A stretch of 64,000 bases of DNA from Pyrinomonadaceae bacterium (lineage in GTDB: Bacteria > Acidobacteriota > Blastocatellia > Pyrinomonadales > Pyrinomonadaceae), in the NCBI GenBank assembly GCA_043740295.1, contig JAYUCO010000025.1, positions 2,741 to 66,740 on the forward strand. Direction: 5' to 3'. The notes under the pieces were generated by a model that searched no databases, was not told the DNA's origin, and was given only the letters and a program-made list of their open reading frames with translations. Numbering within the stretch: the first letter of the stretch is position 1; each line of letters starts with the position of its first letter. A program made the position numbers and the translations under genes. This document shows positions 2 through 23,349 of the stretch, one piece after another.

Positions 2-1699
2 CTATCACCGGCGTCTGGCTCGCTGACTGTGCCGCATAAACAGACACTTTTTGTCGAATCGAGGCTATGGTTTGGCCTGCAAGCTCCAGATCCGGCGGTG
101 CCGATCGCCGACGATTCAGTCACGATTGAATGTCCCGAAACCGGTCAGGAATTCACTTTTACGCTTCGGGGTAATGTGATTGAAAAACCTTCGGTGGCGG
201 TGATGCTTTCGCTCGATCAATCGGGCAGCATGGATGATGATGCAGGCACATCAGGACGTAAACGGATCGATGTGCTAAAGGACTCTGCCGGAGCGTTTGC
301 GGAATTAATTCCGGCAAACGACGGTATAGGGCTCGTTCGTTTCGATCATGACGCTTACAACGTCGATGATGCAACTTGGCCCGGCAAACCTATCACGCGC
401 ATTGTAAGTGATGACGATTTTGACCTAGAACGCATAGCAGCCGTTAACGCTGTGAGTGCTCACGCGACAAATCCGGCCGGATATACTTCGGTTGGCGACG
501 GCGTGGCAAAAGCTCGTACATACCTTAACGATCCTGCGGTCACCGGTTACACAAACAAAGCCATGATCGTATTCACCGATGGTTTGCAAAACAGACCTCA
601 ATCTATCGAAGACGTTACCGGCTCGATCGATAACAGGACTTTTGCGATCGGACTTGGCAATGAGAATCAGGTTGATACGGGCGCTCTTTACGATCTTACA
701 AATGGAACCGGTGGTTTTTTACTGCTGACAGGATTGCTTTCCGACAATATCGACGACTATTTCCGCACAAAGAAGTATTTTCTACAAATACTTTCCGGCG
801 TGACCAATGATAGCGTCGTGCTCGACCCAAACGGCTATATATCACCCGGCAGCACGATTAGGATTCCATTCTACTTAAACGAGACCGACATTCTCTGCTC
901 TACGATGTTGATGTGGGATTACCCGGTGATTGATTTTGCCGTTGAAACCCCTGCGGGTGACATCATTGATATGGCAAGCGCCGCCGGCTTGGGAATAGTC
1001 GCAAAGCTGTCGCCAAGCTCCGGCCTTTATCGGTTTACATTGCCGGTGGCCTTGGGTGGCGGGCAGCAAGCCGGACGTTGGCATGTCGTGTTGAAAATAA
1101 ATGACGGCCGTTATAAGAAATATGCCCGTACGAGCGACGGCCAGAATCAAGGCAATAGCCTTGCATCGAAAGGAGCCCGTTATTGCGTTCAGATAAACAC
1201 TCGAAGCAATCTGAAGATGACGGCACTCGTCGAGCAGAGCGATTTTCTACCGGGTTCTTCTGTACTAGTAAAAGCTAAGCTAACCGAATACGGAATTCCG
1301 GTCGATCATCGTGCCTTGTGCAAGGCATCGGTCGTCAGGCCCGACCTGACTTCATTCGAACTGCCCATGGCCGAAGTGGAACCGGGAGTGTTTCAGGTGA
1401 AATTCAATACGGACCTTCAAGGCGTGTACCGGATTCGAATTATGGCAAAAGGCGTCACACTGCGCGGTAAGCCTTTTACCCGCGAGGAATCGCGCACAGC
1501 GGCGGCATTCCGCAACAAATCTGGTGGCGGATCGGAAAATCCCTCTGAAGGCGGAAATCCGAGCGGAACTGGCGGCACTGATGGCAGATTATCCGAACTC
1601 ATCGCTCGCTGCTGTACTCGATCGACGGCGTTAATGGTGATTGCCGTAATTTTGCTACTGATTATTCTCATTCTGTTGTGGAGGATGATTAGCAATTAG
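2..1699 (+). CDS. von Willebrand factor A (vWA) domain protein with a C-terminal membrane anchor; the 5' end probably lies outside the window
   Basis: The frame is open from nt 2, with no stop upstream of the GTG at 29. MIDAS-type motifs are present: LDQSGSMDD, then GYTSVGDG, then VFTDG. Two beta-rich regions follow. The C-terminus has a hydrophobic helix (ALMVIAVILLLIILILLW) preceded by CC. Confidence 0.75.
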   Translation, partial: LSPASGSLTVPHKQTLFVESRLWFGLQAPDPAVPIADDSVTIECPETGQEFTFTLRGNVIEKPSVAVMLSLDQSGSMDDDAGTSGRKRIDVLKDSAGAFAELIPANDGIGLVRFDHDAYNVDDATWPGKPITRIVSDDDFDLERIAAVNAVSAHATNPAGYTSVGDGVAKARTYLNDPAVTGYTNKAMIVFTDGLQNRPQSIEDVTGSIDNRTFAIGLGNENQVDTGALYDLTNGTGGFLLLTGLLSDNIDDYFRTKKYFLQILSGVTNDSVVLDPNGYISPGSTIRIPFYLNETDILCSTMLMWDYPVIDFAVETPAGDIIDMASAAGLGIVAKLSPSSGLYRFTLPVALGGGQQAGRWHVVLKINDGRYKKYARTSDGQNQGNSLASKGARYCVQINTRSNLKMTALVEQSDFLPGSSVLVKAKLTEYGIPVDHRALCKASVVRPDLTSFELPMAEVEPGVFQVKFNTDLQGVYRIRIMAKGVTLRGKPFTREESRTAAAFRNKSGGGSENPSEGGNPSGTGGTDGRLSELIARCCTRSTALMVIAVILLLIILILLWRMISN

Positions 1700-1926
1700 G
1701 TGTTAAGGTGGCGAAACCCCGGAAATTACTCGGGGTAATTGTCCGGACAGCCAAAGTTCCGTCTCGGCCAGTGGTCGCCGATTTAAGCGCTGACAGTTGG
1801 GTGATTCTAATATGGATTACTTTAAAAGGAGCAAGCCGAAAATCCTGCAACGAAAAAAGAGTAAGCACCCCAAATGCCGAAAAGAGGATGACAGAGTAGG
1901 CAGAAGTATCAAAGGAGATACACAAG

Positions 1927-4104
1927 ATGGAAAAGAAATATGAAAAATTAAGCGTTAAGGATTTAGCCGTAATGACTAATAACAGGCAATTGTTCAAGTT
2001 GCAAAATTTGACAACCGCCATAAGTTTTCCGCAGAACATTACTTACTGGGAGCAAGTAACCTGTGCCGGATATAATCCGCAATTCAGGCGACTGGAAGCA
2101 GTTGTTAAGGTCTATCAAACTACAGGCTACAACGGTAATTTATGTTCAAACGGCTCGCTGGAATACGTGAGGTTTTTTATGGACTTTCACGACGGGTTGG
2201 GATTTCAGGATATGGGTTCTACAACTTTTAAAGTAGCCGATATTTCCAACGCTCCGCCGGGACCGCAGCATCCTTTAAGCTATCTGGCTTACTTGTTTAT
2301 CGATGATACCAAGTACAAGAAGCTTCTCGATTGCGAAAAGGCGGTTATCCCGACACTGCGTGCGGTATTGTCGTGGAACTCTGTTCCTTCACCGGATGCT
2401 AACGTATTGCCGCATTATGGTAATCGGATTGATGCAGACATTCAACTGGCAAGAAAATACAGGGTCTTTCCGTGGGAACTGGCGGAGATTACAAAACTCC
2501 CGGTGCTGACTGACTATCTCCACCCAGATTTTGAACTCGATCTAAAACCGCCGCAGGTATATTCGGCTGAAGCAGTTCAAAAAGCGAACAAAGCTGCCGG
2601 AGTTCCCGACCACCGAACATTCTATTCGGCACTCGGCTCGAAGATAAATTCAACAGTTGATTTTAGCAAGGCTGCTTCAACATTCTCCATAAAAAGTCTT
2701 GATAAACTGGGAATTGACCTTAGTAAATTTTTGGAGTTTTTCAATGGCGAAGGAAAGGAAGCTGATGTTACGTTTGAGGAGCTAACCTGCGTCGGGCTGA
2801 ATACTGCGACAGATAGTTTAGGCGCCGTGATTCACATCAAGAAAGACGCGGGCTTCAATGGTAATTTGTGTTCAAACGGCTCGGCGGAGCATGTCGCTTT
2901 TTGGGCTGATTGGAATAACAATGGTATTTTTGACCAGTATTTGGGAACGGTCAGCCTTAATGTTCACGACATTAAAAACATTCCCGCCGGAGGCTTATAT
3001 TACAATGTTTTACTGCCGTTTGACGTTTCCGAACGTCTAAAGACATGTGATTCGCCGAATATTATCAGGGTCAGAGCGGTGCTTTCGTGGGAATCGCTGC
3101 CTTCGACCACCGACCCAAATCTACTTAACACTTGGGGCAATTTCAAAGATGCTTTGGTTCAGTTAAGACCTGCAAGTAATCCGGGCTCCGGAATTCATAC
3201 CATCATTTCATATGTTGGAAATGTTGACCGGCAGTTCATTCACCCGACCGAACATCTGTATAATTATCAAGCTTTTGCTCCGAATGCGAACAATAACAGA
3301 CCTTGGGGAGGAGGAGTCAACATCAAAGGTATAATTGACCGCAACGCCTTTGCCGGAGTCATAAAATATAGGCTTAGATATAAGTTGGGCGTCTATACCG
3401 TCCCTCCCGCTACTTCCGACACTACTTTTCAACCGGTAGCCGCTTCCGTCACCAATAGTCTTTGGAATCCATTCTTATCGCCGTCCCCATTTTCTAATAC
3501 CCAATTAGCGGATGCTGATGGATGGTTTGTTTATCTAATCGATGCTGGAAACCCCGTCCCTGCAAACCGTGTGTTCAGCAACGACGGTAATGTTTTAGCT
3601 GATTGGAATGCAAGCGGATTAACGGACGGAACATATACAATCCACTTTGAATACACGGATGAACTCGGGAATCCTGTTACAGGCGACCTGTTTTCAATAA
3701 TTATTTGTAACAAAGGAATGGCCATTAGCCCAACTGCCAATGCGACGGTTGATCTGTCAAAGGAGCTTGACCTCGTAATTGACGGAGGAGATTGTCATAG
3801 TTATACACCGGGGGCTCCGATGATTAACGGACATTTAAGGGCGGTTCATCCATATTTTGCGGATTGGTCGCTGGATCTTCAGCCGACTTCGCATACGCAC
3901 GGCGCGCTTCCGTCTCCAGTTTCCAGAAGCTACTCGGCTTTAGGCGATACGGGTGATGCGAATGGAGTTTGGAGTCTGGACACTTCCCTGTTAGACCCTT
4001 GTGGTTACACGGTTAGCATAGGTGCACATACACGAGTGATTTACAATTCGACAAATCTCCCATACTATGCCCCGAAAGCAGTGGGTTTCGCCAAAATTCC
4101 GTGA
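1927..4104 (+). CDS. hypothetical 725-aa protein containing an internally duplicated module of about 130 aa; no family recognised
   Basis: AAAGGAG lies 8 nt upstream of the ATG and there is no signal peptide. Residues ~45-175 and ~287-415 align: G[YF]NGNLCSNGS.E.V.F, then RAVLSW.S.PS, then GN..DA..QL. A hairpin terminator follows the gene. Confidence 0.7.
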   Translation: MEKKYEKLSVKDLAVMTNNRQLFKLQNLTTAISFPQNITYWEQVTCAGYNPQFRRLEAVVKVYQTTGYNGNLCSNGSLEYVRFFMDFHDGLGFQDMGSTTFKVADISNAPPGPQHPLSYLAYLFIDDTKYKKLLDCEKAVIPTLRAVLSWNSVPSPDANVLPHYGNRIDADIQLARKYRVFPWELAEITKLPVLTDYLHPDFELDLKPPQVYSAEAVQKANKAAGVPDHRTFYSALGSKINSTVDFSKAASTFSIKSLDKLGIDLSKFLEFFNGEGKEADVTFEELTCVGLNTATDSLGAVIHIKKDAGFNGNLCSNGSAEHVAFWADWNNNGIFDQYLGTVSLNVHDIKNIPAGGLYYNVLLPFDVSERLKTCDSPNIIRVRAVLSWESLPSTTDPNLLNTWGNFKDALVQLRPASNPGSGIHTIISYVGNVDRQFIHPTEHLYNYQAFAPNANNNRPWGGGVNIKGIIDRNAFAGVIKYRLRYKLGVYTVPPATSDTTFQPVAASVTNSLWNPFLSPSPFSNTQLADADGWFVYLIDAGNPVPANRVFSNDGNVLADWNASGLTDGTYTIHFEYTDELGNPVTGDLFSIIICNKGMAISPTANATVDLSKELDLVIDGGDCHSYTPGAPMINGHLRAVHPYFADWSLDLQPTSHTHGALPSPVSRSYSALGDTGDANGVWSLDTSLLDPCGYTVSIGAHTRVIYNSTNLPYYAPKAVGFAKIP

Positions 4105-4115
4105 AAATTACTGAA

Positions 4116-4154
4116 GCAATTGCCCGTCTTTTTTTAGGGCGGGCAATTGCTTTT
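4116..4154 (+). terminator. rho-independent terminator after the 725-aa gene
   Basis: An 11-bp stem (gcaattgcccg / cgggcaattgc) is followed by TTTT. Confidence 0.6.
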
Positions 4155-4205
4155 CACGGAAATTTCCGTGCTGACGAAATGCACACAAGAACAGGAAATA
4201 AATTT

Positions 4206-4235
4206 TTGACCGGACGTAAATTAAACAAATATCAT
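4206..4235 (+). promoter_or_regulatory. possible sigma-70 promoter for the 2-TM / C1 peptidase pair
   Basis: The sequence reads TTGACC, an 18-nt spacer, then TATCAT, about 105 nt upstream of the ATG at 4340. This is a pattern match only. Confidence 0.3.
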
Positions 4236-4339
4236 TGCTACGGCTAGAAAAAATCAGGCAAATCTTTTGAACGTCAGCACGCTGGCTACAGCTATGTGTA
4301 GATTTAGGCTAAAACAATAAGAAGAAGGAGGAGAAAATT

Positions 4340-4633
4340 ATGCCAGACGGAAAAAAACCAGTAACTGCGATCCAGGTGTTCGCTTTTGTGATCGTGTTGT
4401 TGACGATAGGCGGAATAGTATGGGCGGTTGGATACGGCGGCGATTTTCTTAAAGAAGCTGCAAGAGTTAATGGCCTGATCAGATTCTCGGCAGCAATCGT
4501 GGTCATTGCGATTACCTTTATCGTCGTGTTTTATTTTGTATCCGGCACCGGCAACACTGAGGAAAATACTACAGCAAGACGTGACTTAATGGCGATCCTG
4601 TCAAAGATAACGCCGGTAAACACTTTGAAATGA
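4340..4633 (+). CDS. small membrane protein with two predicted TM helices
   Basis: A strong SD (AAGGAGG) precedes the ATG. Hydrophobic segments are VFAFVIVLLTIGGIVWAV and AAIVVIAITFIVVFYFV. The gene ends 25 nt upstream of the peptidase gene. Confidence 0.6.
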   Translation: MPDGKKPVTAIQVFAFVIVLLTIGGIVWAVGYGGDFLKEAARVNGLIRFSAAIVVIAITFIVVFYFVSGTGNTEENTTARRDLMAILSKITPVNTLK

Positions 4634-4658
4634 AGAAGATAGACGAAGGAGAAAAAAA

Positions 4659-5465
4659 ATGGCAAGCACAAAAAAAATAGAAAGAATTCTCAATGTGATT
4701 CCGTCACAAGGTACGGAACAGGATTGGAGCATGGATAATGCTCTTGCTTCGGGGATGATGGCGGCTCCGGCGGCTTTGCCTGCAAGCAAGGATTTGCGGG
4801 AGGCCTGGTGGAAGGTCGGCGACCAGGGATCGACCGGGTCGTGTGTCGGATGGGGAGCGGCTGAGGGCGTCTTGCGCTGGCATTTTGTCAAGGCAAACAG
4901 AATTCCAAAAGATGCAAATTTATCGCCGAGCTTATCTCCGAGATTCGTTTGGATGGCAGCCAAGGAAACCGATGAATTTTTGTCCCGCCCGACAACTTTT
5001 ATCGAATCCGACGGCACGAGCCTGAAATCGGCTTTGGACATCGCCCGAAAATTCGGCGTGGTTAGCGATAAGATTCTGCCTTTTGGTTCGGGAACGCTTT
5101 ATCAGGGTGATGTAAATACGTTTTACGCCATTGCATCGCAACTCAAAATCTCCGCCTATATCAATTTGTTCAAGAACTTTATCCAATGGCGGACATGGCT
5201 GGCAACAACCGGACCTATTCTCGCGGCGTTGAATGTTGATAAGACCTGGAGCGACGCGGCTCTGACCGGCGGCAACCTGGATGTGTTTCAGCCCAGTACG
5301 GTACGCGGCGGACACTGCATTGCCATCGTCGGCTACAAGGCTGACGGACGGTTTATTGTTCGCAATAGTTGGGGAACGACCTGGGGTGACAAAGGGTTTG
5401 GATATGCGACCGATGCCTATATCCAGGACGCTTTTTTCGACGAAGCATATGGAGTCAACCTATAA
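4659..5465 (+). CDS. papain-like (C1 family) cysteine peptidase with no recognisable signal peptide
   Basis: The catalytic triad motifs are present: QGSTGSCVGWG (Cys), GGHCIAIVGY (His) and VRNSWGTTWGDKGFGY (Asn). An AAGGAG SD precedes the start. Confidence 0.8.
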   Translation: MASTKKIERILNVIPSQGTEQDWSMDNALASGMMAAPAALPASKDLREAWWKVGDQGSTGSCVGWGAAEGVLRWHFVKANRIPKDANLSPSLSPRFVWMAAKETDEFLSRPTTFIESDGTSLKSALDIARKFGVVSDKILPFGSGTLYQGDVNTFYAIASQLKISAYINLFKNFIQWRTWLATTGPILAALNVDKTWSDAALTGGNLDVFQPSTVRGGHCIAIVGYKADGRFIVRNSWGTTWGDKGFGYATDAYIQDAFFDEAYGVNL

Positions 5466-5592
5466 ACATCAACCCGTTATTTGATTTCCAGTAACGGCAG
5501 AACCATGAATATGGCGGCGAGCATAAGAACCGCTCATCAGCCAATGGAGAGCACGAGATAAAGGTCGGGTAGGACTTTAGGAGAAAAATAAC

Positions 5593-6267
5593 ATGAGCGA
5601 CACATCAAATACGCCGTTGGGTTACACCGCAGCCGAAGCAAATCCAATTGTAAACCTTAATTCTACCGGCACTGATAAAGTAGGTGTATTTACATCTGCT
5701 CAGTCGCTTGTAACATTTCCCGGAGCGACCTTTGCCGTTTCGTTGATCTGGTCGGTACTTGAAAAAGTATACCCTCCGTTCGGCACAAAAAATCTGCTGG
5801 TGCCGTTGGTATTATCTGTCGCAATCGGCTCACTAATCTATCTGAGTAGCGTCCAACAAGGCGGTGGTGTTAGAGGACACATTATGGGCGGTTTTGTTGC
5901 TCTGGTCAATTCTTTCATCATTGCCGCAGCAGTTCTCGGCGTGAGTGGGACGCAAGGTAAACCTGTGGCAAATGACCCGGTCATCGCGAATACGGTCCAA
6001 AACCCGGTGCCAGCTAGTAAAGATGACTTGCTCAAACAGGCGGAAGATGCGGCCGCGAGCGAAAATTACGCGCTTGCGATCGAGAAATACAATAGTTTGA
6101 TCAAACTGGAATCGGAAAATTCCTGGCACTATAAAGATCGTGGAAATGCTTTCCAACATTTAAGGACTCCTAATTTTGAGGCAGCCGTGGCTGATTATAA
6201 TACGGCTCTCGGGTTAATTCCGAGGTTTGACGATGCAAGCCTAAATCAGATGATGCCAAAACACTAG
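5593..6267 (+). CDS. membrane protein (about 3 TM helices) with C-terminal TPR repeats; apparently interrupted by a frameshift
   Basis: A TAGGAG SD precedes the start. Hydrophobic helices occupy residues ~45-120. TPR-like helices follow (YALAIEKYNSLIKL, AAVADYNTALGL). The ORF ends abruptly inside a TPR unit. Confidence 0.6.
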   Translation: MSDTSNTPLGYTAAEANPIVNLNSTGTDKVGVFTSAQSLVTFPGATFAVSLIWSVLEKVYPPFGTKNLLVPLVLSVAIGSLIYLSSVQQGGGVRGHIMGGFVALVNSFIIAAAVLGVSGTQGKPVANDPVIANTVQNPVPASKDDLLKQAEDAAASENYALAIEKYNSLIKLESENSWHYKDRGNAFQHLRTPNFEAAVADYNTALGLIPRFDDASLNQMMPKH

Positions 6268-6419
6268 AACAAGTTCGGGAGTTGTATTCTGATCGCGCCT
6301 CGGCATTCTTAGGGCTTTCAAGACGGAGCGAGGCCAAGGATGATTTTGAACGAGTGTGCGTGGTCGATGCAAATTCAGAACTATGTAAGGCCGCCCGAAA
6401 AGAACTCAAACAGTTTTAG
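6231..6419 (+). pseudogene. out-of-frame continuation of the TM-TPR gene (final TPR unit in frame 3)
   Basis: Frame 3 is open from 6231 and reads ...DDAKTLEQVRELYSDRASAFLGLSRRSEAKDDFERVCVVDANSELCKAARKELKQF*. That is a good TPR unit, and it has no start codon of its own. Confidence 0.55.
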
Positions 6420-6546
6420 CCGCGTTCTCGCTCCGGCTCCGGGACAAAATCCGCCGCCGCTTCCACATGCATAATTTGGAGAAGTTCGAAAAGGGCATTT
6501 TTTAAGGTTTTATGTTAAGTATTAAAAGTAAAACCGACGTAACTAT

Positions 6547-8046
6547 ATGAAAAAGAATCCACCGAAAACTGCTGCACAAAAAGAGAAACTGACGACACCT
6601 AAAACTGACGGGAAAAAAGTCAGTAAAGCCACGCTGAAGGCTGAGCAAAAGGCTTTCGTAAAAGCATGGGCAAAAAGACAGAAGTCGAGCCTTGCCTTCG
6701 CGGCGGCCGCAGGCATTGATCAGACCGTGGAAAACCTCTCAAAGATAGATCACATCGTGGTTTTGATGCTCGAAAATCGCTCATTCGATCACATGCTCGG
6801 TTATTTGAGCCTGGAAGGCATCCGCACCGATATCGATGGCTTGCAGAATACTATGTCGAACAAGGATTCGAATAATAACGCCATTCCGGTCTTTCACTTA
6901 AAACAAACGGCATTCACAGGCGGCGAAGACCCATGCCACGAATTTGACTGCGTGGACGAGCAGTTAACTGGCCCGAACGCCGGATTTGTTAAGAATTTTG
7001 AAAAACACCACCCGTCGAATAAGGGTCTGGTCATGGGCTACTATAACGCCACTGAAGTACCTGTTTTCGACCACCTGGCAAAGCATTTTGTTACATTCAA
7101 CCGTTGGTTTTCTTCTGTTCCGGCAGCTACGTGGCCGAATCGGCTCTATTCGATCACCGGCCGAGCTTCAGAGAAGAAAAGCAAGAAAGTTCCGATCTAT
7201 AATATTCCCTCGTTTGTCAGACACCTCGACGCAAATGATGTCTCATGGGGCTGGTTTAACCATAAAGGCGTAGGCACGCTTCGATTAGTCGATGGCCATT
7301 ATCGCATCGGTCACTTCGACAAATTTGCATATTTTGATAAACGTAAAAGCTTTACGTCCGGTCTTTTTGGCGATCTCAGTTTTATCGAACGGGCACAGCA
7401 GGGTTCTCTGCCTTCGGTTTCATGGATCGATCCCAATTTTATCAACGCGCCGGGTGGAAACGTTTCGACATCGAACGACGACCATCCTCCGTCAGATATA
7501 TTAAATGGCCAGTCACTCGTCCTTCAGCTTTACCGGGCTATTACAACCGGACCAAAGTGGGACAAAACACTGCTGATTGTTGCATATGATGAGCATGGCG
7601 GATTATTCGATCACGTCGAGCCGACGGCAGCGGAAGATGATAATCCGAATTTTATGAAATACGGCGTTCGCGTTCCGGCGTTTATCGTCTCTCCTTATGT
7701 CGAAGCCGGAGTCGTTAGTGATTTTGTTTTCGACCATACGTCGATAATCAAAACAATTTTGCTGCGGTTTTGTTTGGACGGCGTGATGTACCCGAATATG
7801 GGCAAACGTGTCAGCGCGGCAAACCATCTCGGTTCGTTCCTCACGAGTGACACACCGCGACAGCCTCCTTCGAGTTCAGGTGTTATTAATGCAGTTGCGT
7901 CGTGGAAAAAGGAAATCTTCAAGGACTCGCTAAGCCTCGGGGCTAGTTCTTTTTCGCCCCCACCGGAACCCAACGACCTGCATAAAGGGATTCTCGCGGC
8001 GAGCAAGAAAATTAAAGCTCAAGGCTTTCCAGAGGACCAGCCGTAA
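6547..8046 (+). CDS. phosphoesterase-family protein (phospholipase C / acid phosphatase AcpA type)
   Basis: Family motifs are present: VVLMLENRSFDHMLGY, AATWPNRLYS (Thr nucleophile context), NDDHPPSD and AYDEHGGLFDHV. The N-terminal 45 aa are Lys-rich, and no twin-arginine motif is present. Confidence 0.8.
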   Translation: MKKNPPKTAAQKEKLTTPKTDGKKVSKATLKAEQKAFVKAWAKRQKSSLAFAAAAGIDQTVENLSKIDHIVVLMLENRSFDHMLGYLSLEGIRTDIDGLQNTMSNKDSNNNAIPVFHLKQTAFTGGEDPCHEFDCVDEQLTGPNAGFVKNFEKHHPSNKGLVMGYYNATEVPVFDHLAKHFVTFNRWFSSVPAATWPNRLYSITGRASEKKSKKVPIYNIPSFVRHLDANDVSWGWFNHKGVGTLRLVDGHYRIGHFDKFAYFDKRKSFTSGLFGDLSFIERAQQGSLPSVSWIDPNFINAPGGNVSTSNDDHPPSDILNGQSLVLQLYRAITTGPKWDKTLLIVAYDEHGGLFDHVEPTAAEDDNPNFMKYGVRVPAFIVSPYVEAGVVSDFVFDHTSIIKTILLRFCLDGVMYPNMGKRVSAANHLGSFLTSDTPRQPPSSSGVINAVASWKKEIFKDSLSLGASSFSPPPEPNDLHKGILAASKKIKAQGFPEDQP

Positions 8047-8087
8047 AGATTACAACTTCAGTTTTTAAATAACATAAGGAGGAAAAA

Positions 8088-9305
8088 ATGTCAGAACAAA
8101 TAACTCAGGATATGAAAGCAATGGGAGTGGCTCAGGTTTTAGTGTTTATGAAACCGGATGCAGATTCGACGAAGACAGCCGTCATGGCAAACATCGGTGA
8201 CCATTTTACAAAATCAGAATTTAGCATTTCGAGCGCCGTCGCCGCGTCGACTGACGGCATTTCAAGCGCAAGTGTGCCAAAAATGCGCTATTATCCAAAT
8301 CTCGGTGTTGCCCTTGGTACTGTCGACCGAGACGGATTGTCGGCACTGCGGGCCGACAAAACAAATGTTGATAAAGTATGCGGAACGCCGCCGTTGGGAT
8401 TGATAAGGCCCAGAGAGACGAACGCGGCAGAATTAGAAGACAGCGAAACATGGGGCATCCGGGAGCTTGGCGTAAAAGATCTCTGGGATCAGGGACTTAC
8501 CGGCCAAGGCGTTTTGATTGGACACCTCGATACGGGTGTTGACGGTGATCATGCGGCATTTAAGAAAAATGCGATATTCGATTTTACAGAGTTTGACGGT
8601 ATCGGGAAGGAAGTTACACCAAAGCCCAAAGCATACGACAGTGGCGAACATGGAACACATACCGCCGCAACCATTCTCGGACGAGCAGTAAGCGGCAAAT
8701 CCGTCGGCGTAGCTCCAGACGCACAACTCGCAAGCGCTATGGTTATCGAGGGCGGCAATTCCGTACCACGTGTCATTGGCGGAATGGATTGGGCGGTTGG
8801 CAAGGGGGTAAGGATTTTAAGCATGTCGCTTGGGTTCCCAGGATGGTGGACCGATTTTCTCGGCCTGACTAGAATTCTTCGTGCGAAAGGTATTCTTCCA
8901 GTCTTTGCGATCGGTAACGAGTATGCAGGGAAAAGCCGTTCGCCAGGAAATTATTGGCAGGCTGTCTCTGTCGGGTCATGCAATGAGCAACTGGAAGTAT
9001 CAGATTTTTCGTCAAGCCAGCTTTTTAAGCGTAAGACGGACCCTGTCGTTCCCGATCTCGTAGGTCCGGGTGAAGGTATCATCTCCGCAAAACCAGGCGG
9101 TGATTATCAGTCAATGAACGGAACATCCATGGCGACGCCACATATTGCCGGTTTGGCAGCCTTATTATGGCAGGCAAAGCCAAACGCGACCGCAAATCAA
9201 ATTGAAAAGGCAATATACGGTTCCTGCGTTCTTCCGCCCACGATGTCTAGAATGAGGGCTAATAGAGGTCTGCCGAACGGGCCAAGGGCACTGGCATTGT
9301 TATAA
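8088..9305 (+). CDS. S8 family subtilisin-like serine peptidase with an N-terminal prodomain-like region and no signal peptide
   Basis: The Asp/His/Ser motifs are present: GHLDTGVD, GEHGTHTAATI and NGTSMATPHIAGL. A strong SD (AAGGAGG) precedes the start. Confidence 0.85.
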   Translation: MSEQITQDMKAMGVAQVLVFMKPDADSTKTAVMANIGDHFTKSEFSISSAVAASTDGISSASVPKMRYYPNLGVALGTVDRDGLSALRADKTNVDKVCGTPPLGLIRPRETNAAELEDSETWGIRELGVKDLWDQGLTGQGVLIGHLDTGVDGDHAAFKKNAIFDFTEFDGIGKEVTPKPKAYDSGEHGTHTAATILGRAVSGKSVGVAPDAQLASAMVIEGGNSVPRVIGGMDWAVGKGVRILSMSLGFPGWWTDFLGLTRILRAKGILPVFAIGNEYAGKSRSPGNYWQAVSVGSCNEQLEVSDFSSSQLFKRKTDPVVPDLVGPGEGIISAKPGGDYQSMNGTSMATPHIAGLAALLWQAKPNATANQIEKAIYGSCVLPPTMSRMRANRGLPNGPRALALL

Positions 9306-9334
9306 AAATCCGCGTTTGGTATGCTAGGGATATT

Positions 9335-9670
9335 GTGCGAACAGGAAAAAAGACAAAGACTGACCCAGAATTAACGAGACAGCTCAACGCAAAATCCGCT
9401 GGAAAAGAATCTATAGGAGCGGTGTTTTCGCTTGATCTCCCATTGAAAAAGCTGCTGGATCCAAATGTAGTCGAAGAAACTACTAATAATGTACTAAGAC
9501 GCGCCGAAAAAAGTGCGGGATCAAAACCACGGGATGTAAACGTTTTCAAGAATTTGGGTTCATTTGCGGTCTCGGCCGACGCCTCTTTCCTTCAGGAAAT
9601 TATCGATGACCCTGACATCGCATCTGCTGTAGCCAGTAGTCAACCCGAATCGGATATTGAGCCCGTTTGA
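9335..9670 (+). CDS. small hypothetical protein resembling the N-terminal prodomain of the adjacent S8 peptidase
   Basis: The start is GTG with a weak SD. VNVFKNLGSFAVSADASFLQEIIDDPDIASAV aligns with MRYYPNLGVALGTVDRDGLSALRADKTNVDKV of the S8 N-terminus. Confidence 0.45.
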   Translation: MRTGKKTKTDPELTRQLNAKSAGKESIGAVFSLDLPLKKLLDPNVVEETTNNVLRRAEKSAGSKPRDVNVFKNLGSFAVSADASFLQEIIDDPDIASAVASSQPESDIEPV

Positions 9671-10006: not shown

Positions 10007-12571
10007 TCACCGCAACCCTTGGCCGAATTGTTCGGTGCCGACGGTTCCGAGGCCGTTTAGGCGGAAGCTAAAGGCGACTCGGTTTTCGTTGCGGGCACCG
10101 ACGTTGAAGGTGTAATACTGGATCGCCAACGCACAGCAATCGTAGGCATAGCCGATGGTGTAGAGCGAACTTATCAAAGGTTGGAGACCTCTTGATCGAC
10201 GGTTCTCAAAATCGAGGAACAGCGAAACACCGCCGTAAAGACCGTGGTCACGGTTGCCGACAAGGATCGACGGGCTCCACTGCGAACCGCGTAAGGTTCC
10301 GGCTTCCTTTGCATTATTATTCGCATACTGGGCAAGCGAAGGGATCAAATTGACTGCCCGTGTGTAATAAAATGTCTGGAACACCTTGACCAGTTTTGTA
10401 TTGTAGCCAACCGATGCTGAAACGGCACGCACTCCGTCGCCCTGCACACCAACATCTAATCGAGTATTGAAAAATACCGTCCTCTGCGGCCGAAATGTGA
10501 GGTCGATATTTAGCGGTGAAAAACGCCGTGCGACGCCGCCGAAAGTATAAAAGCTCAATGCAGTGATCGGTTCGATCTGATTTCTTTGCCCCTGGACCAA
10601 AGCCCCGCCAAAGGTCTTGTCAAAAAAATACTTGCCGCGGACAGTAAGGCTGAATATCTCGTATGGCTGGATGGTCAGTGAATTTTGTGTTTTGGGTTTT
10701 GTATCTTTTGTCTGCTCCGTGTCATCGCCGACATCCACCACGAATTTTCCTGTCAATCCGGCCTTTACCTGTAAAAGCTTCTGCGCCTCTTCGGTCACGG
10801 CTTCGGCGTATCGTCTTGTGTAGATGCGGTTAGTGATGCCGTATTCGACCTCGTTTGTGTCCGCAATGGTGTCCAATTGGTCAAAACGTATTATTCGGTT
10901 GAAATTATCAACGCCCTTTATAAAGCGATATGTGACAAACGGTTCTATCACGTGTCTGAAACGGAATGTATTATCTTTTCCGTAGAAGTTTTTCGCCAGG
11001 GCTACGGGCCTGATATCGAATTCAAACTCGCCGTATTTACGAAGCACGTCGCTACCGGTGACCTGCCGCAAATTGTTAAATGAATTAGAGTAATATGTCG
11101 CACGTATCGCCCCCGATGCCGTGAAATTAACATATTTCGTATGCAGCGGGACCAGCACCTGCGGGTAAATATCGAGCCGCTGCCCGATCACCGGCGTGAC
11201 GACCGGATCGCTTCCGGTCACTTGCCTGTAAAGCTCGACATTGTCAACTTGCTCACGCCTTGAAACACCCTCGATGCTCGTTTTAAATGAAAAATATACA
11301 GGCTTTAAGAATGAAAGCGTTGACGGACGTTTTTCAAAATGCACACTAGGCAAATTGGAGGTTTTTATCCGCACATTGGGGATCGAAATCACCTGTGAGC
11401 GGGCAAGAAGGTCAAGCGTATAGTTGTTCCAGCTTTTATTTACAAAAGCCTGCGATACTTCGATAGGCGAAATGATCTGCTGCACACCATCCGAAAAAAC
11501 CTGCCGAAATGCCAGATTAGAGGTCAGCCGAACGTCGGTCGCCGCGGTAAATCCGTTAGAAAAATAATGCACACCTTCCGCATAGACGATTGAACCGCCC
11601 TGGTTCGGCCGGTCCGGGCTCTCGTCTGCTCCGAGGATACGGTCCTTGACCGCGTAAAAGCCAAAATTGAAATACGACCGCGAATTTGCCCGCGTCCGCA
11701 CATCCAACCCGTAACCGAAACCGCGTGAAGTGTAAAGATCGCCGCGAAATGTCACATCGGCCGACCTGCCCAATGTCTGAAAATAAGCACCTGATAATCT
11801 AAGCCCTTTGTTGCCTGAAAACGAAAAACTCGGCGTCAGGAAACCTGATGAACGGTCTCGAACTTTGATCGGTATCGAAACATACGGCAAGGGAATGACC
11901 GGAATATCCTTTACCCTGAATTTTGCATTTTTTAATTTTATTTTGTCGTTAATTTTGATCTTCGCTTCATCGGCGGTGAACGACCATTTCGGCACGGCTT
12001 CTTCGCAAGCCGTGAATTTCCCCTTGGTCACCACGACCTCATTAAGAGCGGTGCGTTCAACACGTTCGGCGGTAAAATAGATCACCGTTCCGTCGTTGGT
12101 CTGATTTGTGAACCCGGTGGAATCTTCAAAAACCCCAAGCTTTGTCTTGTAATTCCAGACAGCCTTTGCCCCTGTGATGCGCTGGTCGTCACCCTGGTCA
12201 AACACCACGCTCCCTTCCGCGACCATTTTGTTCTCGGCTTCATAGATACTTATTTTGTCTGCCTGCAGCCTGTAGATGCCAAAATGAACATCCACATTAC
12301 CTTCGTGGACGAGGACACGTTTACCTTCCACGCCTTCAACGGTCTGCTTTTGCGAATAAACGACCACTTCGCCGTCTCCGCCTTCTTTTTCGAACGACAC
12401 TTTAGGTTTAGGCGGTGGTATATTTTGATCGGCCGATATTGGATTTATATTCGGAGTATCGGTGATCGGATTGGCAATTTGGCGTTCGACAGGATTTGTC
12501 TGCTGCGCGTTTCCCGATAGATGCGGCAACACAAGGAGTGAAATAAAGATGATGATTTTATGAAAACGCAT
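10007..12571 (-). CDS. lptD: LPS-assembly outer-membrane protein LptD
   Basis: The protein has a signal peptide and an OstA-like N-terminal region (GNVDVHFGIYRLQADKISIY). The FTACEEAVPKWSF motif is present. A long beta-barrel-like C-terminus ends in aromatic-rich strands. Confidence 0.75.
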   Translation of the reverse strand: MRFHKIIIFISLLVLPHLSGNAQQTNPVERQIANPITDTPNINPISADQNIPPPKPKVSFEKEGGDGEVVVYSQKQTVEGVEGKRVLVHEGNVDVHFGIYRLQADKISIYEAENKMVAEGSVVFDQGDDQRITGAKAVWNYKTKLGVFEDSTGFTNQTNDGTVIYFTAERVERTALNEVVVTKGKFTACEEAVPKWSFTADEAKIKINDKIKLKNAKFRVKDIPVIPLPYVSIPIKVRDRSSGFLTPSFSFSGNKGLRLSGAYFQTLGRSADVTFRGDLYTSRGFGYGLDVRTRANSRSYFNFGFYAVKDRILGADESPDRPNQGGSIVYAEGVHYFSNGFTAATDVRLTSNLAFRQVFSDGVQQIISPIEVSQAFVNKSWNNYTLDLLARSQVISIPNVRIKTSNLPSVHFEKRPSTLSFLKPVYFSFKTSIEGVSRREQVDNVELYRQVTGSDPVVTPVIGQRLDIYPQVLVPLHTKYVNFTASGAIRATYYSNSFNNLRQVTGSDVLRKYGEFEFDIRPVALAKNFYGKDNTFRFRHVIEPFVTYRFIKGVDNFNRIIRFDQLDTIADTNEVEYGITNRIYTRRYAEAVTEEAQKLLQVKAGLTGKFVVDVGDDTEQTKDTKPKTQNSLTIQPYEIFSLTVRGKYFFDKTFGGALVQGQRNQIEPITALSFYTFGGVARRFSPLNIDLTFRPQRTVFFNTRLDVGVQGDGVRAVSASVGYNTKLVKVFQTFYYTRAVNLIPSLAQYANNNAKEAGTLRGSQWSPSILVGNRDHGLYGGVSLFLDFENRRSRGLQPLISSLYTIGYAYDCCALAIQYYTFNVGARNENRVAFSFRLNGLGTVGTEQFGQGLR

Positions 12572-12668: not shown

Positions 12669-14015
12669 ATGGCAAAACAGAGCGTTTTAGTTGTAGAAGA
12701 CGAAGAATTGATGCGTTCGATCTTACGCAGGCTGCTGGAAGATGCGGGCTTCCGCGTTTTCACCGCCGACAGCTCTGAAACCGCGCTTGAGATCTTTCCT
12801 GATAACGACATTGCCGCAACGTTGACCGATATTAAAATGGCGGGAATGGACGGCCTACAGTTGCTTGAACGAATTAAAGCCGTCGATCCCAATGCAATGG
12901 TCATAATTATGACAGCATATTCGTCTGTCGATTCCGCAGTATCCGCTCTGCGCAAAGGAGCATATGATTACGTCACAAAGCCTTTTGTTAACGAAGACCT
13001 TCTTCAGACCATAAAAAATGCAATTCTACAGCGCGAACTTTTTCACGAGAACCGTGCCCTTCGCCGTGAACTTAATAAGCAATACACGTTCACGGAAATT
13101 ATCGGACAGAGCAACGGCCTAAAAAACATTTTCACATTGGTCCAGAAAGTTGCCGATACGAATGCGGCGGTTTTGATACAGGGAGAAAGCGGCACCGGCA
13201 AGGAATTGATCGCCCGGGCTATCCATTTCGACAGCGGACGCGCCTCAAAACCATTCCTTGCGGTAAATTGCGGGGCCTTGCCAGAGTCCCTGCTTGAAAG
13301 CGAGCTTTTCGGGCATACAAAAGGAGCCTTTACCGGTGCCGTCACCGAGAAAAAAGGGCTGTTCCGGAGTGCTGCGGGCGGCACGCTTTTTTTGGATGAG
13401 ATCGGCGAAATGCCGTTGCCGCTGCAAGTGAAATTGCTGCGTGCGCTGCAGGAACACGAGGTCACGCCCGTCGGCTCATCAATTCCCGTCAAATTTGACA
13501 CGCGGATAATTGCCGCGACAAATAAGGACCTCGAATTTGAGGTCGCCGCAAATAATTTCCGGGAAGACCTTTTTTACAGGCTTAATGTGATCGAGATCTC
13601 GATCGCGCCGCTTCGCGAACGGCGCGATGATATTCCGCTGCTGGTCAAACATTTTGCGGTTAAATCCGCACGCAATCAGAACGCCGAAGAAAAGGCGGTG
13701 ACAAATGAAGCGATGTCTGCTCTATTGAACTACGATTGGCCGGGAAATGTACGCGAATTGGAGAACGTCATTGAACGGGCCTTCATCCTCAGCGGCGGCG
13801 AGATCGATCTCAACAGCCTGCCGTTAAAGGTCCGTAGCAAAACCGCAAATATATCTGAGACCGGCGAATCTCGGCCGACTCTCGAAGAGACCGAACGTAA
13901 ATACATGTTGGAGATAATGGACGAGGTGGAAAATGACAAGGCCAGAGCCGCAAAAATTCTCGGCATCGATCTTTCCACACTTTATCGCAAGCTAAAGCGA
14001 TATCAGGATATTTAA
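12669..14015 (+). CDS. sigma-54-dependent response regulator (NtrC family)
   Basis: A REC domain (VLVVEDEE...TDIKMAGMDG) is followed by an AAA+ domain with GESGTGKE and GAFTGA motifs. A C-terminal Fis-type HTH is present. Confidence 0.9.
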   Translation: MAKQSVLVVEDEELMRSILRRLLEDAGFRVFTADSSETALEIFPDNDIAATLTDIKMAGMDGLQLLERIKAVDPNAMVIIMTAYSSVDSAVSALRKGAYDYVTKPFVNEDLLQTIKNAILQRELFHENRALRRELNKQYTFTEIIGQSNGLKNIFTLVQKVADTNAAVLIQGESGTGKELIARAIHFDSGRASKPFLAVNCGALPESLLESELFGHTKGAFTGAVTEKKGLFRSAAGGTLFLDEIGEMPLPLQVKLLRALQEHEVTPVGSSIPVKFDTRIIAATNKDLEFEVAANNFREDLFYRLNVIEISIAPLRERRDDIPLLVKHFAVKSARNQNAEEKAVTNEAMSALLNYDWPGNVRELENVIERAFILSGGEIDLNSLPLKVRSKTANISETGESRPTLEETERKYMLEIMDEVENDKARAAKILGIDLSTLYRKLKRYQDI

Positions 14016-14019
14016 ATAT

Positions 14020-14547
14020 CTATTTGGAAGACGCTTCGAGGATAAAATAATCGCTGTTCTCAATTTTCACGAGCCGTCCATGAATATATGGCGGAAGCAA
14101 AATGTCATCGGCCGAATACGATTCCCCGTTTAGCAGATCGTCACCGCTGATCTCGCTTTGTGCCATAAGTTCGGCTGGAAACCATTGTTCGGTTGTCATG
14201 TTGGCTGTTTCACCCTGTTTGCGTTTCTGGACCTCCGTAAGAAATGCTTTGGCCTGTTCGGCAGGAAGTCTCAATACCGCAATAAGTTTCTTTTCGATCT
14301 GGTCCGAGGTTTGATCTTTTAACGATTCTTCTTTCCAGACCGTTTCTTCCGGGTCAAATGGCAGGTTGACCAAAGCCCGTAGTTCCTCGGTGTTGTCCTT
14401 TACGGTGTTCGTCGCTCGATTGGCTGTATTGGCCGGCGACGTATTTACCGCGGTTAAATTGTCATCTTTTTGGCTTAAGGTGCAGCCGACTAGCATTTGA
14501 ATTGATAAAATAAATGCTAGAATAATCGCAGTTTTTAACCATTGCAT
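14020..14547 (-). CDS. hypothetical lipoprotein
   Basis: The likely start is the internal Met, giving MQWLKTAIILAFILSIQMLVGC with lipobox LVGC. No family was recognised. Confidence 0.5.
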   Translation of the reverse strand: MQWLKTAIILAFILSIQMLVGCTLSQKDDNLTAVNTSPANTANRATNTVKDNTEELRALVNLPFDPEETVWKEESLKDQTSDQIEKKLIAVLRLPAEQAKAFLTEVQKRKQGETANMTTEQWFPAELMAQSEISGDDLLNGESYSADDILLPPYIHGRLVKIENSDYFILEASSK

Positions 14548-14666
14548 CGGCCTATTGTAAAAGCATTGATTGGTCTTTGCAATTCGCCGGCACAGCAAGG
14601 TGGCTTAAGCTTGGCCTGTGCTGACCAAAGATCTTTCTGCGAACGACCTAAAAGGCAGGTAAAGAC

Positions 14667-15188
14667 ATGAGAACAAAAACTATATGTATTTCTATAGCTT
14701 TGCTGGTATTTTCAGCTGTTTGCCCGGCACAAATACAAAAGCCTTCCGGCATTGTTAGATCGTTCTACAAATTTCATCTGGCCGCCTCCGGCACTTTCAA
14801 CGCAGCAGCGATCAAGACCCGCCGTAGATGGTTCAGCGCCGATCTAAACATGCTTTTCCATAACGAACTGAAGCGCCAAAAAGCATATTTGAAGATAAAT
14901 CCGACCGACAAACCGCACTTCGGCGACGGCTTCCCTTTTCAGCCTTTCGAAGAATGCTCGCAGGGCGGCAGAGCTTATAAAAACACTTACATCGTCATCG
15001 ATAAACGCACCGCACGAAACACGGCCACGGTCGAGATAAAATTTTATGGGCCCAAAAAGTGCGGCGGAAAATTGATTGACACATACGAGATCGAGATGAT
15101 AAAAACCAGTTCCAGTTGGCTGATAAACGATTGGATATATTCTAATGGCGAAACCCTTACTTCAGAACTTAAACGTGCAGATTATTAG
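14667..15188 (+). CDS. hypothetical secreted protein (possibly DUF3828-like)
   Basis: A signal peptide is present (MRTKTICISIALLVFSAVCPAQ). The family assignment is from memory only. Confidence 0.4.
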   Translation: MRTKTICISIALLVFSAVCPAQIQKPSGIVRSFYKFHLAASGTFNAAAIKTRRRWFSADLNMLFHNELKRQKAYLKINPTDKPHFGDGFPFQPFEECSQGGRAYKNTYIVIDKRTARNTATVEIKFYGPKKCGGKLIDTYEIEMIKTSSSWLINDWIYSNGETLTSELKRADY

Positions 15189-15215
15189 TGTCGCTTGTTC
15201 GCATCACAACCCTTA

Positions 15216-16541: not shown

Positions 16542-16544
16542 TCC

Positions 16545-16659
16545 CGACCCTGAAAGGGTCGCACAATGGCGTTCGGTGGCTCCCCTTCAGGGAGCGAATC
16601 AGATCATCACCAAACCCAGGGTTTCACCCGGGGCTATTATCTTTGACGCTTTCAGCGTC
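16545..16659. repeat. cluster of four short stem-loops with related pentaloops (REP/MITE-like intergenic element)
   Basis: The four hairpins are CGACCC-TGAAA-GGGTCG, GCTCCC-CTTCA-GGGAGC, CCCAGGG-TTTCA-CCCGGGG (one mismatch) and GACGC-TTTCA-GCGTC. Confidence 0.6.
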
Positions 16660-16751
16660 GGAAAACCCTTTCTACCATACAACCGTGATTTCGATGTAAA
16701 CTTGCATTTATGCTAAAATTTCAACTTATACATAAATAACGAAATCGACAT

Positions 16752-18428: not shown

Positions 18429-18510
18429 TGATCTCTTGTCCACGAAATGAGACGTAGATAAAAGCAACATTATGACTTGTAACCAAGGCTGAACTTGCTA
18501 AACTTGACTT

Positions 18511-19707: not shown

Positions 19708-19715
19708 CTCACAGA

Positions 19716-20003: not shown

Positions 20004-20015
20004 ACACTTGCTTCC

Positions 20016-20053
20016 AAAAAAAAAGCAGCCTGCCGGTCTCCCGGTAAGGCTGC
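20016..20053 (-). terminator. rho-independent terminator of the GVITAG-repeat gene
   Basis: On the minus strand a GCAGCCT...AGGCTGC hairpin is followed by T9. Confidence 0.8.
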
Positions 20054-20090
20054 TCCACGTAAATCTACCCCCCCAAGCTTGATACCTGGA

Positions 20091-23091: not shown

Positions 23092-23349
23092 TTCCTGCGT
23101 TGGCTCCCGCTCTTAATTAACCATCTATTGTCAATGATTTATGTCCTTAAGCTCCAAACCTATTGTCGCGGCTTCGCCTTCACCATAAACTTTAATGTCC
23201 AACACCTTTCGAGAAACCTGACACAAGGCCGCAAACATATGTAATTTAACCCCGGCCAAAACCCAAATTTCCTCTCTCCAGACTCGCAAAATAAAATGCA
23301 TTGCCTTTATAATCATTGAAAATACTTTCAATGAGGTGAACAACGCATA

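Follow-up and report, generated by a model that had tools for sequence, protein, structure and literature searches.

The left end of the window, a 64,000-nucleotide stretch of contig JAYUCO010000025.1, carries a run of same-strand genes that stops just short of lptD. The forward strand holds exactly eight open reading frames (ORFs) between positions 2 and 9670, each at the coordinates listed in a preliminary description of the sequence (Table 1). From left to right they encode part of a tyrosinase-vWA protein, a 725-amino-acid (aa) all-beta protein, a 97-aa membrane protein, a papain-family (C1) peptidase, a 224-aa membrane protein with three transmembrane (TM) segments, a phospholipase-C-family phosphoesterase (PLC), an S8 subtilase and a 111-aa protein. 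The preliminary description proposed the eight genes as a candidate effector or conflict system headed by the vWA protein. What we find is a variable accessory region of an ordinary kind, in which a module of protease, partner and hydrolase is of modest interest and two large protein families are uncharacterised. Most probably, positions 2-9670 are the right part of a ~17-kb lineage-specific slot of variable content that lies before lptD in Pyrinomonadaceae-like Acidobacteriota, a mosaic of at least four independently inherited units in which the S8 subtilase would work together with a small partner and a neighboring hydrolase.

We searched all eight proteins against Pfam, NCBIfam and PADLOC-DB v2, and scanned PHROGs as well. 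To the left, the locus could be followed on a source contig, L001, which is one of four metagenome contigs that encode the exact 725-aa protein; it provides a 22-kb locus that reaches 8 kb beyond the left edge of the window. Strong AGGAG-type Shine-Dalgarno sequences precede five of the seven complete genes, in agreement with the preliminary description, and gaps of 130-280 nt separate the units. The GC content of the cluster (0.46-0.50) is the same as that of its flanks and gives no compositional sign of recent transfer, and a scan for promoters and terminators returned counts no different from those in shuffled sequences. The catalytic and metal-binding motifs of the vWA, C1, PLC and S8 proteins are intact by alignment and motif inspection, as had been noted.

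Each of the seven complete genes has an in-frame stop 4-23 codons upstream of its start, with no ATG, GTG or TTG in between, and therefore re-annotation cannot create a signal peptide in any of them. Hydrophobicity analysis found no signal-like segment in the hydrolases of the cluster either, so the earlier observation that the three hydrolases lack a recognizable Sec signal holds. It is scarcely credible that the locus encodes plainly secreted degradative enzymes with signals lost to wrong start codons. PLC-family and S8-family enzymes are commonly secreted, and the PLC has a KR/RR-containing stretch where a twin-arginine (Tat) signal would lie, but homologs across the families have no N-terminal hydrophobic segments and neighboring lipoproteins in the same loci show normal signals, so the absence is specific. 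Mis-called starts that hide Sec signals were rejected as an explanation, there being no alternative starts.

Table 1. Features of the cluster and of its right-hand boundary (positions in the window)
Feature	Position	Strand	Remarks
Tyrosinase-vWA protein, C-terminal 565 aa (of 948 aa)	2..1699	+	VWA_2; left end outside window
725-aa all-beta multidomain protein, GEVED-like domain duplicated internally, no signal peptide	1927..4104	+	
97-aa protein, two TM helices, charged C-terminal tail	4340..4633	+	
Papain-family (C1) cysteine peptidase, 268 aa, no prodomain, no signal peptide	4659..5465	+	
224-aa membrane protein, 3 TM helices and weak C-terminal TPR	5593..6267	+	
PF04185 phosphoesterase / phospholipase-C-family enzyme (PLC), 499 aa, Lys-rich N-terminal extension	6547..8046	+	
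S8 subtilase, 405 aa, no signal peptide	8088..9305	+	
111-aa conserved partner of S8 subtilase	9335..9670	+	
Degenerate lptD 3' duplicate ("ghost"), last 57 codons	9704..9874	-	tblastn/blastn
lptD, right-hand boundary of slot, outside cluster	10007..12571	-	Pfam LptD + LptD_2

Relatives of this bacterium share a common gene order at this position: an Aminotran_4 gene, a spermine-synthase-like gene, variable genes, a C1 peptidase gene, further variable genes, lptD on the opposite strand, a sigma-54 regulator and a methylmalonyl-CoA mutase gene. The slot to the left of lptD is filled differently from one relative to the next. It holds ORFans, C1 and PG_binding_1 in L044; C1 and PG_binding_1 + SH3 in a JGI contig; a lipoprotein, C1, a 3-TM protein and GH25 in L042; and, in the nearest relatives (L037-L039), a lipoprotein, a 130-aa protein, a 3-TM protein, PLC, S8, a 111-aa-like protein, a ghost of lptD, a phospholipase D (PLD) protein and then lptD itself. 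A u396-type lipoprotein heads the region in the contig of the window, in L038 and in L042. Six genes of the window genome (u232, u272, tyrosinase-vWA, 725-aa, 97-aa and C1) are extra relative to L038, inserted after the head genes and ahead of the TM-PLC block, and its PLD gene was lost or never present. L005, another 22-kb locus and one that shows no lptD, has its 725-aa and C1 genes between those for an M10 + PG_binding_1 peptidase and a beta-lactamase-fold protein. The slot hydrolases are signal-less in every relative locus, while the lipoprotein and secreted head proteins of the same loci have signals. The cluster is thus a mosaic, and its units would be a solitary tyrosinase-vWA protein, a solitary 725-aa all-beta protein, a small 2-TM protein with a C1 peptidase, and an operon of the 3-TM protein, the PLC, the S8 subtilase and its 111-aa partner.

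The right-hand end of the slot bears a trace of its history. The lptD ghost, already recognized in the preliminary description, matches the true lptD end at 10007 with 70% amino acid identity over its 57 codons (tblastn) and 74% nucleotide identity over 168 nt (blastn). The same ghost lies 3' of the 111-aa ortholog in L037 and L038 and is absent from L044, which is without the S8 block; it is present wherever the S8 block abuts lptD. This distribution points to recombination at the lptD 3' end and supports the earlier suggestion of a past insertion or recombination there, so that a recombination-prone slot at this site is now documented in Pyrinomonadaceae-like bacteria. The assignment to that group is itself based on similarity, as the lptD and sigma-54 response regulator of the window, 69% and 78% identical to those of a Pyrinomonadaceae metagenome-assembled genome (MAG), would place it in the Pyrinomonadaceae. 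Between the ghost and the true lptD, L037 (2193-3911) and L038 (6748-8466) carry the PLD-like gene, which encodes a 572-aa signal-less protein with PLDc_2 and two HKD motifs; the window holds only 336 nt at this position.

The 8 kb upstream of the window contain five genes without a Pfam match, encoding a 558-aa protein, the 396-aa lipoprotein and proteins of 112, 232 and 272 aa. The preliminary description had supposed that an ATPase or integrase might lie beyond the left edge. None does: Pfam finds no MoxR, STAND or other nucleoside triphosphatase (NTPase) and no integrase in these 8 kb, no Walker A motif occurs in the 13 proteins of the region, and the downstream flank likewise has no AAA/MoxR Pfam match or Walker A motif. 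The features of an integrative genomic island (integrase, tRNA target, flanking direct repeats) are missing from the source locus, where the lptD ghost is the only trace; a tRNA search gave nothing, the 22-kb locus has neither integrase nor transposase, and long flanking direct repeats were not found. The 112-aa and 232-aa genes are separated by 1 kb of non-coding DNA (L001:4100-5100, ~3-4 kb upstream of window position 1). A 21-nt unit is repeated in tandem there in two arrays, of ~4 and ~10 copies, and two pairs of 40-nt inverted repeats are also present. The gap lies where the window genome has its extra genes relative to L038 and may be the trace of an insertion junction.

The protein at the left edge had been described as a vWA protein at the head of the cluster. 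Its vWA domain, metal ion-dependent adhesion site (MIDAS) and C-terminal anchor were correctly recognized, but the protein itself was not, since the window holds only the end of a 948-aa tyrosinase-vWA protein whose complete gene lies at 6927-9773 of L001. A tyrosinase domain (PF00264, 2.9e-21) occupies the first ~250 residues, outside the window, and Pfam VWA_2 is matched at 2.1e-7 by the window part and at 5e-7 by the full-length protein. The domains follow in the order tyrosinase, beta-sandwich, vWA with MIDAS, two or three beta-sandwiches and C-terminal TM anchor. The AlphaFold2 (AF2) model of a 90%-identical homolog, with a predicted local distance difference test score (pLDDT) of 81, contains a polyphenol oxidase fold (6z1s) and a vWA fold (4fx5); after the last beta-sandwiches come a disordered linker and then a terminal helix. 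By inspection, the tyrosinase domain has the type-3 copper ligands H62-x8-H71 (..PWHR), H212-x3-H216 and a DPFVFLLHSNVDR motif, and the copper-site histidines are invariant in 36 homologs. The MIDAS reads DQSGS at residue 455 of the full protein, and the family alignment shows the DxSxS...T...D motif with D446/S448/S450, T536 and D567 invariant.

This family comprises at least 1115 clusters at 55-65% identity from several phyla. None of 120 relatives has an N-terminal hydrophobic segment or signal, and only 26 of the 120 have a TM tail, the others ending in a soluble four-Cys tail. The window protein is best explained as tail-anchored, with its bulk facing the cytoplasm. In five other contexts, some of which are mobile elements, the gene stands alone among unrelated neighbors. 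In Novosphingobium these are a PIN toxin pair and an integrase island, and in a member of the Gemmataceae a reverse transcriptase and a transposase; a planctomycete and a soil contig have other unrelated genes around it; and in Panacibacter ginsenosidivorans (CP042435, L035:1-9200) it lies inside a mobilizable or conjugative element. The Panacibacter element also encodes a relaxase, a TraG-like coupling protein, MobC, RadC, a single-stranded DNA-binding protein, DUF932, ORC-CDC6-like, PRTase-CE and thymidylate-synthase proteins and an N6 methyltransferase. The same tyrosinase head (residues 1-376, 61-64% identity, no signal peptide) is elsewhere fused to RICIN or FG-GAP domains and not to vWA. 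These fusions occur on plasmids of Rhodococcus sp. DMU1 (L053:6001-7746), where transposases of the ISL3 and IS3 families and an integrase flank the gene, and Variovorax sp. WDL1 (L054:6001-8070). A scan of viral contigs with the tyrosinase-vWA protein found no relatives, and literature searches on tyrosinase and vWA in bacteria found no description of the family. We conclude that tyrosinase-vWA is a solitary, horizontally spread gene family that often sits in mobile elements. With more than 1000 signal-less clusters, frequent mobility and no described role it is worth specialist attention.

The 725-aa protein is likewise a family of its own. The preliminary description had assigned it to no recognizable family, and this stands insofar as no Pfam match exceeds the threshold, although a sub-threshold match to GEVED (2.2e-4) is present. 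The family has at least 923 clusters, from Acidobacteriota, Bacteroidota, Proteobacteria, Microcystis and methanogens; every one is ~715-735 aa long and carries the annotation "hypothetical". Its AF2 model has a pLDDT of 82, and Foldseek comparison of this model with PDB and BFVD retrieved only generic strings of Ig, FN3 and macroglobulin beta-sandwiches with TM-scores below 0.2. Residues ~23-174 resemble residues ~265-410, a duplication also visible as a 38-nt direct repeat in the DNA, and three cysteines are invariant in each copy of the duplicated domain. A further invariant cluster, GGDCH...H...H in the C-terminal domain, could bind metal. No signal peptide or Tat motif occurs in the N-termini across the family, a viral-contig scan found no relatives, and literature searches on GEVED returned nothing that describes it.

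To examine the neighborhood of the 725-aa gene, we ran tblastn with all 13 region proteins in 27 genomes that have a homolog. Another member of the cluster lies nearby only twice, as the C1 gene in L005 (Blastocatellia), the one genome where a member adjoins the homolog, and as a distant PLC in L020. Pfam assigned 171 families to 128 neighbors, none of them in more than two loci, and all-against-all clustering agreed. Because its neighbors are unrelated and not conserved, contrary to what membership in one system would entail, the 725-aa gene is an independent, solitary gene family. It is equally large and completely uncharacterised, and equally worth specialist attention.

These two families bear directly on the view that all eight genes form a single conflict or defense system, in which a tail-anchored vWA protein and an upstream NTPase sense a signal and unleash two proteases and a phospholipase. 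The arrangement on one strand, the intact MIDAS, the signal-less hydrolases typical of intracellular effectors and the frequent location of tyrosinase-vWA homologs in mobile or defense-rich neighborhoods would all suit such a system, as would the match of the S8 subtilase to a PADLOC subtilase model (1.6e-27). That match, however, reflects the generic S8 fold; beyond it PADLOC-DB v2 gave only a marginal IetS match (0.0024) to the same protein and nothing for the other seven. Neither the cluster nor the 8 kb upstream contains the NTPase, the vWA gene is unlinked to the other members in its five other contexts, the 725-aa gene is linked to a member only in the two loci named above, the PLC-S8 block of the nearest relatives is unaccompanied by vWA, 725-aa and C1 genes, and the intergenic gaps divide the cluster into its units. 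Scattered orthologs, which the preliminary description itself named as grounds for giving up the idea, are what we see for the vWA and 725-aa genes; ordinary signal peptides, its other such ground, did not emerge. We consider a single system very improbable, and the same-strand association of vWA and hydrolases, a false lead in the search for new conflict systems, to be a patchwork in a variable chromosomal slot.

The published systems closest to this idea are the MoxR-vWA "ternary" conflict systems dependent on nucleoside triphosphates (Kaur, Burroughs, Iyer and Aravind 2020, PMC7159879). As in those systems, a vWA domain with an intact MIDAS is joined to an enzymatic domain in one polypeptide, with peptidases nearby, and the tyrosinase-vWA family spreads horizontally and sits in variable regions. 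Unlike them, the window protein has no MoxR AAA+ partner, nor do the five other tyrosinase-vWA genes, and no VMAP, iSTAND, FtsH or beta-propeller domain was detected in the 13 proteins with Pfam, NCBIfam or PADLOC. The effectors of the ternary systems are C-terminal, whereas here the tyrosinase is N-terminal and the C-terminus consists of beta-sandwiches and a TM or Cys-rich tail; their operon context is preserved, whereas tyrosinase-vWA is solitary in every context we examined. Tyrosinase is not mentioned in PMC7159879.

The third unit joins a small membrane protein to a protease. Hydrophobic-segment analysis bears out the two TM segments noted earlier in the 97-aa protein, which matches PHROG 9646 weakly (E 0.0025); a PHROGs scan assigned no holin or phage function, and Pfam likewise found no holin family. 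A related domain (47% identity) forms the N-terminal part of a 255-aa 3-TM membrane protein in L042, encoded directly upstream of a signal-less GH25 muramidase. By this analogy the 97-aa protein could be holin-like or immunity-like; its adjacency to C1 is not conserved in related slots. The C1 peptidase (Peptidase_C1, 1.6e-13) has an intact GSC / GGH / NSWG triad when aligned to xylellain (3ois) and belongs to a signal-less family of at least 3860 clusters of ~264 aa. Its gene lies in the same slot before lptD in Pyrinomonadaceae genomes and adjoins the 725-aa homolog in L005; in related genomes C1 is the usual occupant of the slot.

The fourth unit begins with the 224-aa protein. Three TM segments are present as described earlier, whereas the tetratricopeptide repeat (TPR) reported with them appears only below threshold (TPR_11, 6.2e-5, 23 bits against a gathering score of 26.8). 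Its TM part is 46% identical to a 141-aa protein encoded directly upstream of the PLC ortholog in L038 and L039; among the nearest relatives it accompanies the PLC gene as a partner. The PLC itself matches Pfam Phosphoesterase (PF04185) at 1.9e-73 and retains the motifs ENRSFDH, TWPNR (the T-x-PNR nucleophile), NDDHP and YDEHGG..DH. Because it scores far below the NCBIfam PC-PLC equivalog cutoff (143.5 against 580 bits), we take it for a PF04185 family member and not a PlcH ortholog; its best solved relative is plant non-specific phospholipase C4 (NPC4; 8hav, 1.5e-37). Among the closest 150 representatives the catalytic domain stands either at the very start of the protein or at the C-terminus of a larger one, and the missing signal is therefore a trait of the clade. 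Bacterial enzymes of the PlcH/AcpA type carry Tat signals. The window PLC shares the catalytic motifs of NPC4, PlcH and AcpA and is signal-less like the plant enzymes, but its clade appears to differ from PlcH and AcpA in lacking a Tat signal, and further differences are an N-terminal extension rich in Lys and a C-terminal tail that is conserved. The N-terminus reads KRQKSSLAFAAAAGI in the window protein and ARRKSAVTKMVMSLAAGL in the L038 ortholog, and the closest clade members have no such segment.

The S8 subtilase (Peptidase_S8, 1.2e-48) has an intact triad (DTG148, HGTH188, GTSM345) preceded by an N-terminal region of ~110 aa that may be prodomain-like. In S8 orthologs at 43-76% identity a small gene always lies downstream. 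A 111-aa homolog (38-67% identity) directly follows S8 in the window, L037-L039, L040 and L041. On plasmids of Azospirillum (49% identity) and Rhizobium (43.5%), full-length relatives of this S8 likewise have a ~100-aa ORF behind them, and these ORFs match the profile of the 111-aa protein (hhalign probability 80%, E 1.4e-5). The S8-111aa pair is thus conserved in six independent lineages, from Acidobacteriota to alphaproteobacterial plasmids. The order TM-PLC-S8-111aa is kept in the nearest relatives L037-L039. In L040 (5431-9668), five small genes, including two that encode DUF2589 proteins, precede the pair, and by eye alone a 376-aa ORF 3' of it resembles a TnpB/IS605-type transposase accessory protein.

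The propeptide of subtilisin, I9, is both an intramolecular chaperone and an inhibitor, and a free-standing downstream partner is not the classical arrangement. As in I9-containing and intracellular subtilisins, the catalytic domain of the window S8 follows a ~110-aa N-terminal region, and the separate small protein always encoded beside this S8 type is consistent with a chaperone or inhibitor. The difference is that Pfam I9 was detected neither in the S8 N-terminus nor in the 111-aa protein. The prodomain-like character given to the 111-aa protein in the preliminary description is not demonstrated: profile comparison with the S8 N-terminus was insignificant (hhalign probability 1.9%), the 111-aa protein has no Pfam match, and its profile matched neither propeptides nor anything else relevant in the PDB. 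The resemblance comes down to a shared "..NLG.." motif and the pattern of secondary-structure-like segments. A tblastn search of plasmids with the 111-aa protein found nothing, and literature searches on subtilases and anti-phage activity returned nothing that describes these families. A bacterial gasdermin-protease system was considered and rejected, as there is no gasdermin-like gene and the subtilases in the gasdermin paper are fungal.

Fusion proteins extend the association of this protease with envelope-degrading enzymes. A 1651-aa signal-less protein of the Rhizobium sp. TH2 plasmid pTH2a (WP_258163207.1; L056:2365-7320) consists of a GDSL lipase, an Amidase_3 domain, an M74/LAS murein endopeptidase and, at its C-terminus, an S8 domain of the window type. 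By eye it also contains an NlpC/P60-like segment; a 102-aa partner ORF follows, and a conjugal-transfer gene and a gene for a CHAT-domain protein lie near. P0400, a single polypeptide of 1460 aa, starts with a prodomain-like region and combines an S8 domain with a PLC of the signal-less clade, and other members of the clade are fused to an Rv2525c GH-like domain (P0393) or a metallo-beta-lactamase domain (P0364). Enzymes that degrade the envelope and have no export signals recur beside this S8 type or fused to it, in P0400 with a distant S8. The pair of subtilase and small partner, repeatedly joined to signal-less membrane- or wall-degrading enzymes, merits specialist attention. The earlier picture of a signal-less hydrolase arsenal was therefore fair for part of the region, where the S8-111aa and TM-PLC-S8 unit is conserved, but not in its vWA- and NTPase-dependent framing.

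The nearest published concept is that of polyvalent proteins encoded by plasmids and conjugative elements (Iyer et al. 2017, PMC5512222), together with multi-hydrolase proteins that are polymorphic-toxin-like, and the MoxR-vWA ternary systems, none of whose defining features are present, are further away. In pTH2a the S8 type lies C-terminal to a lipase, an amidase and a murein endopeptidase that a peptidase could process, and the window has like activities, a lipid hydrolase and an S8, as separate adjacent genes. The processing domains in PMC5512222 are metallopeptidases and papain-like peptidases, with subtilisin occurring 0 times. The window genes differ from the polyvalent scheme in that they are separate and chromosomal, with no conjugation or phage genes nearby, and a small protease partner encoded in trans is not part of that scheme.

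The protease-partner-hydrolase logic of this unit is putative, as would be any export route. The S8 subtilase would be made without a signal, and its activity would be under the control of its N-terminal region and of the 111-aa partner, which we predict to be an inhibitor or folding chaperone. The protease would process or activate signal-less enzymes that are encoded with it and degrade the envelope. Here that enzyme is the NPC-type PLC, whose substrate would be membrane phospholipid. The small membrane proteins may release or position these enzymes in a holin-like manner, or protect the producer as immunity-like proteins.

A related possibility is that the slot is an antibacterial or lytic arsenal, in which signal-less envelope enzymes leave through a holin-like route (type-10-like secretion) or through a contact-dependent injector encoded elsewhere, with the small TM proteins and lipoproteins as holins or immunity proteins. 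The slots of relatives do hold signal-less GH25, PG_binding_1, M10 + PG_binding_1 and PLD proteins; the pTH2a polyprotein joins a lipase and murein hydrolases to the window S8 type; and polyvalent plasmid proteins with peptidoglycan-attacking and processing-peptidase domains are a described theme (PMC5512222). The cluster resembles holin-endolysin cassettes and type 10 secretion in its small multi-TM proteins beside signal-less hydrolases, and in L042 a protein with a 97-aa-like domain precedes GH25. Against this, the window has no muramidase, peptidoglycan endopeptidase or other muralytic enzyme and no Pfam or PHROG holin match, the 97-aa/C1 pairing is not kept, and the tyrosinase-vWA and 725-aa genes do not fit. 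Markers of the type VI secretion system or of injected effectors (VgrG, Hcp, PAAR, Rhs or marker domains) and tail-like or type IV secretion genes are absent from the 22-kb source locus and from window 1-30 kb. We regard such an arsenal as unlikely.

Several points weigh against the reading of a variable slot with an S8-partner-hydrolase module. Neither the window nor the 8-kb upstream flank contains a muralytic enzyme or recognized secretion or injection machinery. The left boundary of the slot, the spermine-synthase-like gene, is placed by analogy with relatives, the contig of the window having been covered for 8 kb upstream. The S8 domain of the P0400 fusion is only distantly related to the window S8, and the S8 proteins of L037-L039 are 76% identical to it, effectively one lineage, so the conserved order there may be mere shared descent. 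The fold and inhibitor function of the 111-aa partner are predictions. In the window PLC a weakly hydrophobic stretch of 11 residues comes after KR, and the L038 ortholog shows RR; this may be a weak Tat signal. Finally, a close relative of the PLC (P0361, 52% identity) lies beside glpD and glpK, a context that suggests a plain metabolic or lipid-remodelling role for the clade.

This last context would suit another account, in which ordinary housekeeping or metabolic enzymes lie side by side and only S8 and its partner are linked. The PLC would be an intracellular NPC-type enzyme that remodels lipids or scavenges phosphate, the subtilase would work inside the cell with its regulator, and the papain-like peptidase would be cytoplasmic. 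The signal-less PLC most similar to plant NPC4, the very common signal-less C1 family and a GC content equal to that of the flanks would all agree with this account. It accounts less well for the fusion of an S8 domain to the PLC clade in P0400, the joining of the window S8 type to envelope hydrolases in pTH2a, the TM-PLC-S8-partner order kept in relatives and a slot content in those relatives that is strikingly enriched in envelope-directed domains. We think it possible but unlikely, and favor the mosaic slot with its S8-partner-hydrolase module.

A bolder version of that module seems quite improbable to us. Here the 3-TM, PLC, S8 and 111-aa genes would be a self-contained, protease-gated envelope-lysis module in which the 111-aa partner restrains the signal-less S8 and the released S8 activates the signal-less PLC at the inner membrane. 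Tyrosinase-vWA, apart from this module, could be a mobile single-gene oxidative effector. The lysis module could serve cell suicide (abortive infection) or the killing of neighbors, and the S8-PLC fusion and the plasmid lipase-amidase-endopeptidase-S8 polyprotein would be single-chain forms of the same device.

To the right of lptD, positions 12669-29677 of the window carry core genes of an ordinary kind, for a sigma-54 response regulator, a major facilitator superfamily transporter, methylmalonyl-CoA mutase, a class-V aminotransferase, a GGDEF-EAL protein, a prolyl oligopeptidase and a class-A penicillin-binding protein, and this flank is syntenic with the Pyrinomonadaceae MAG.

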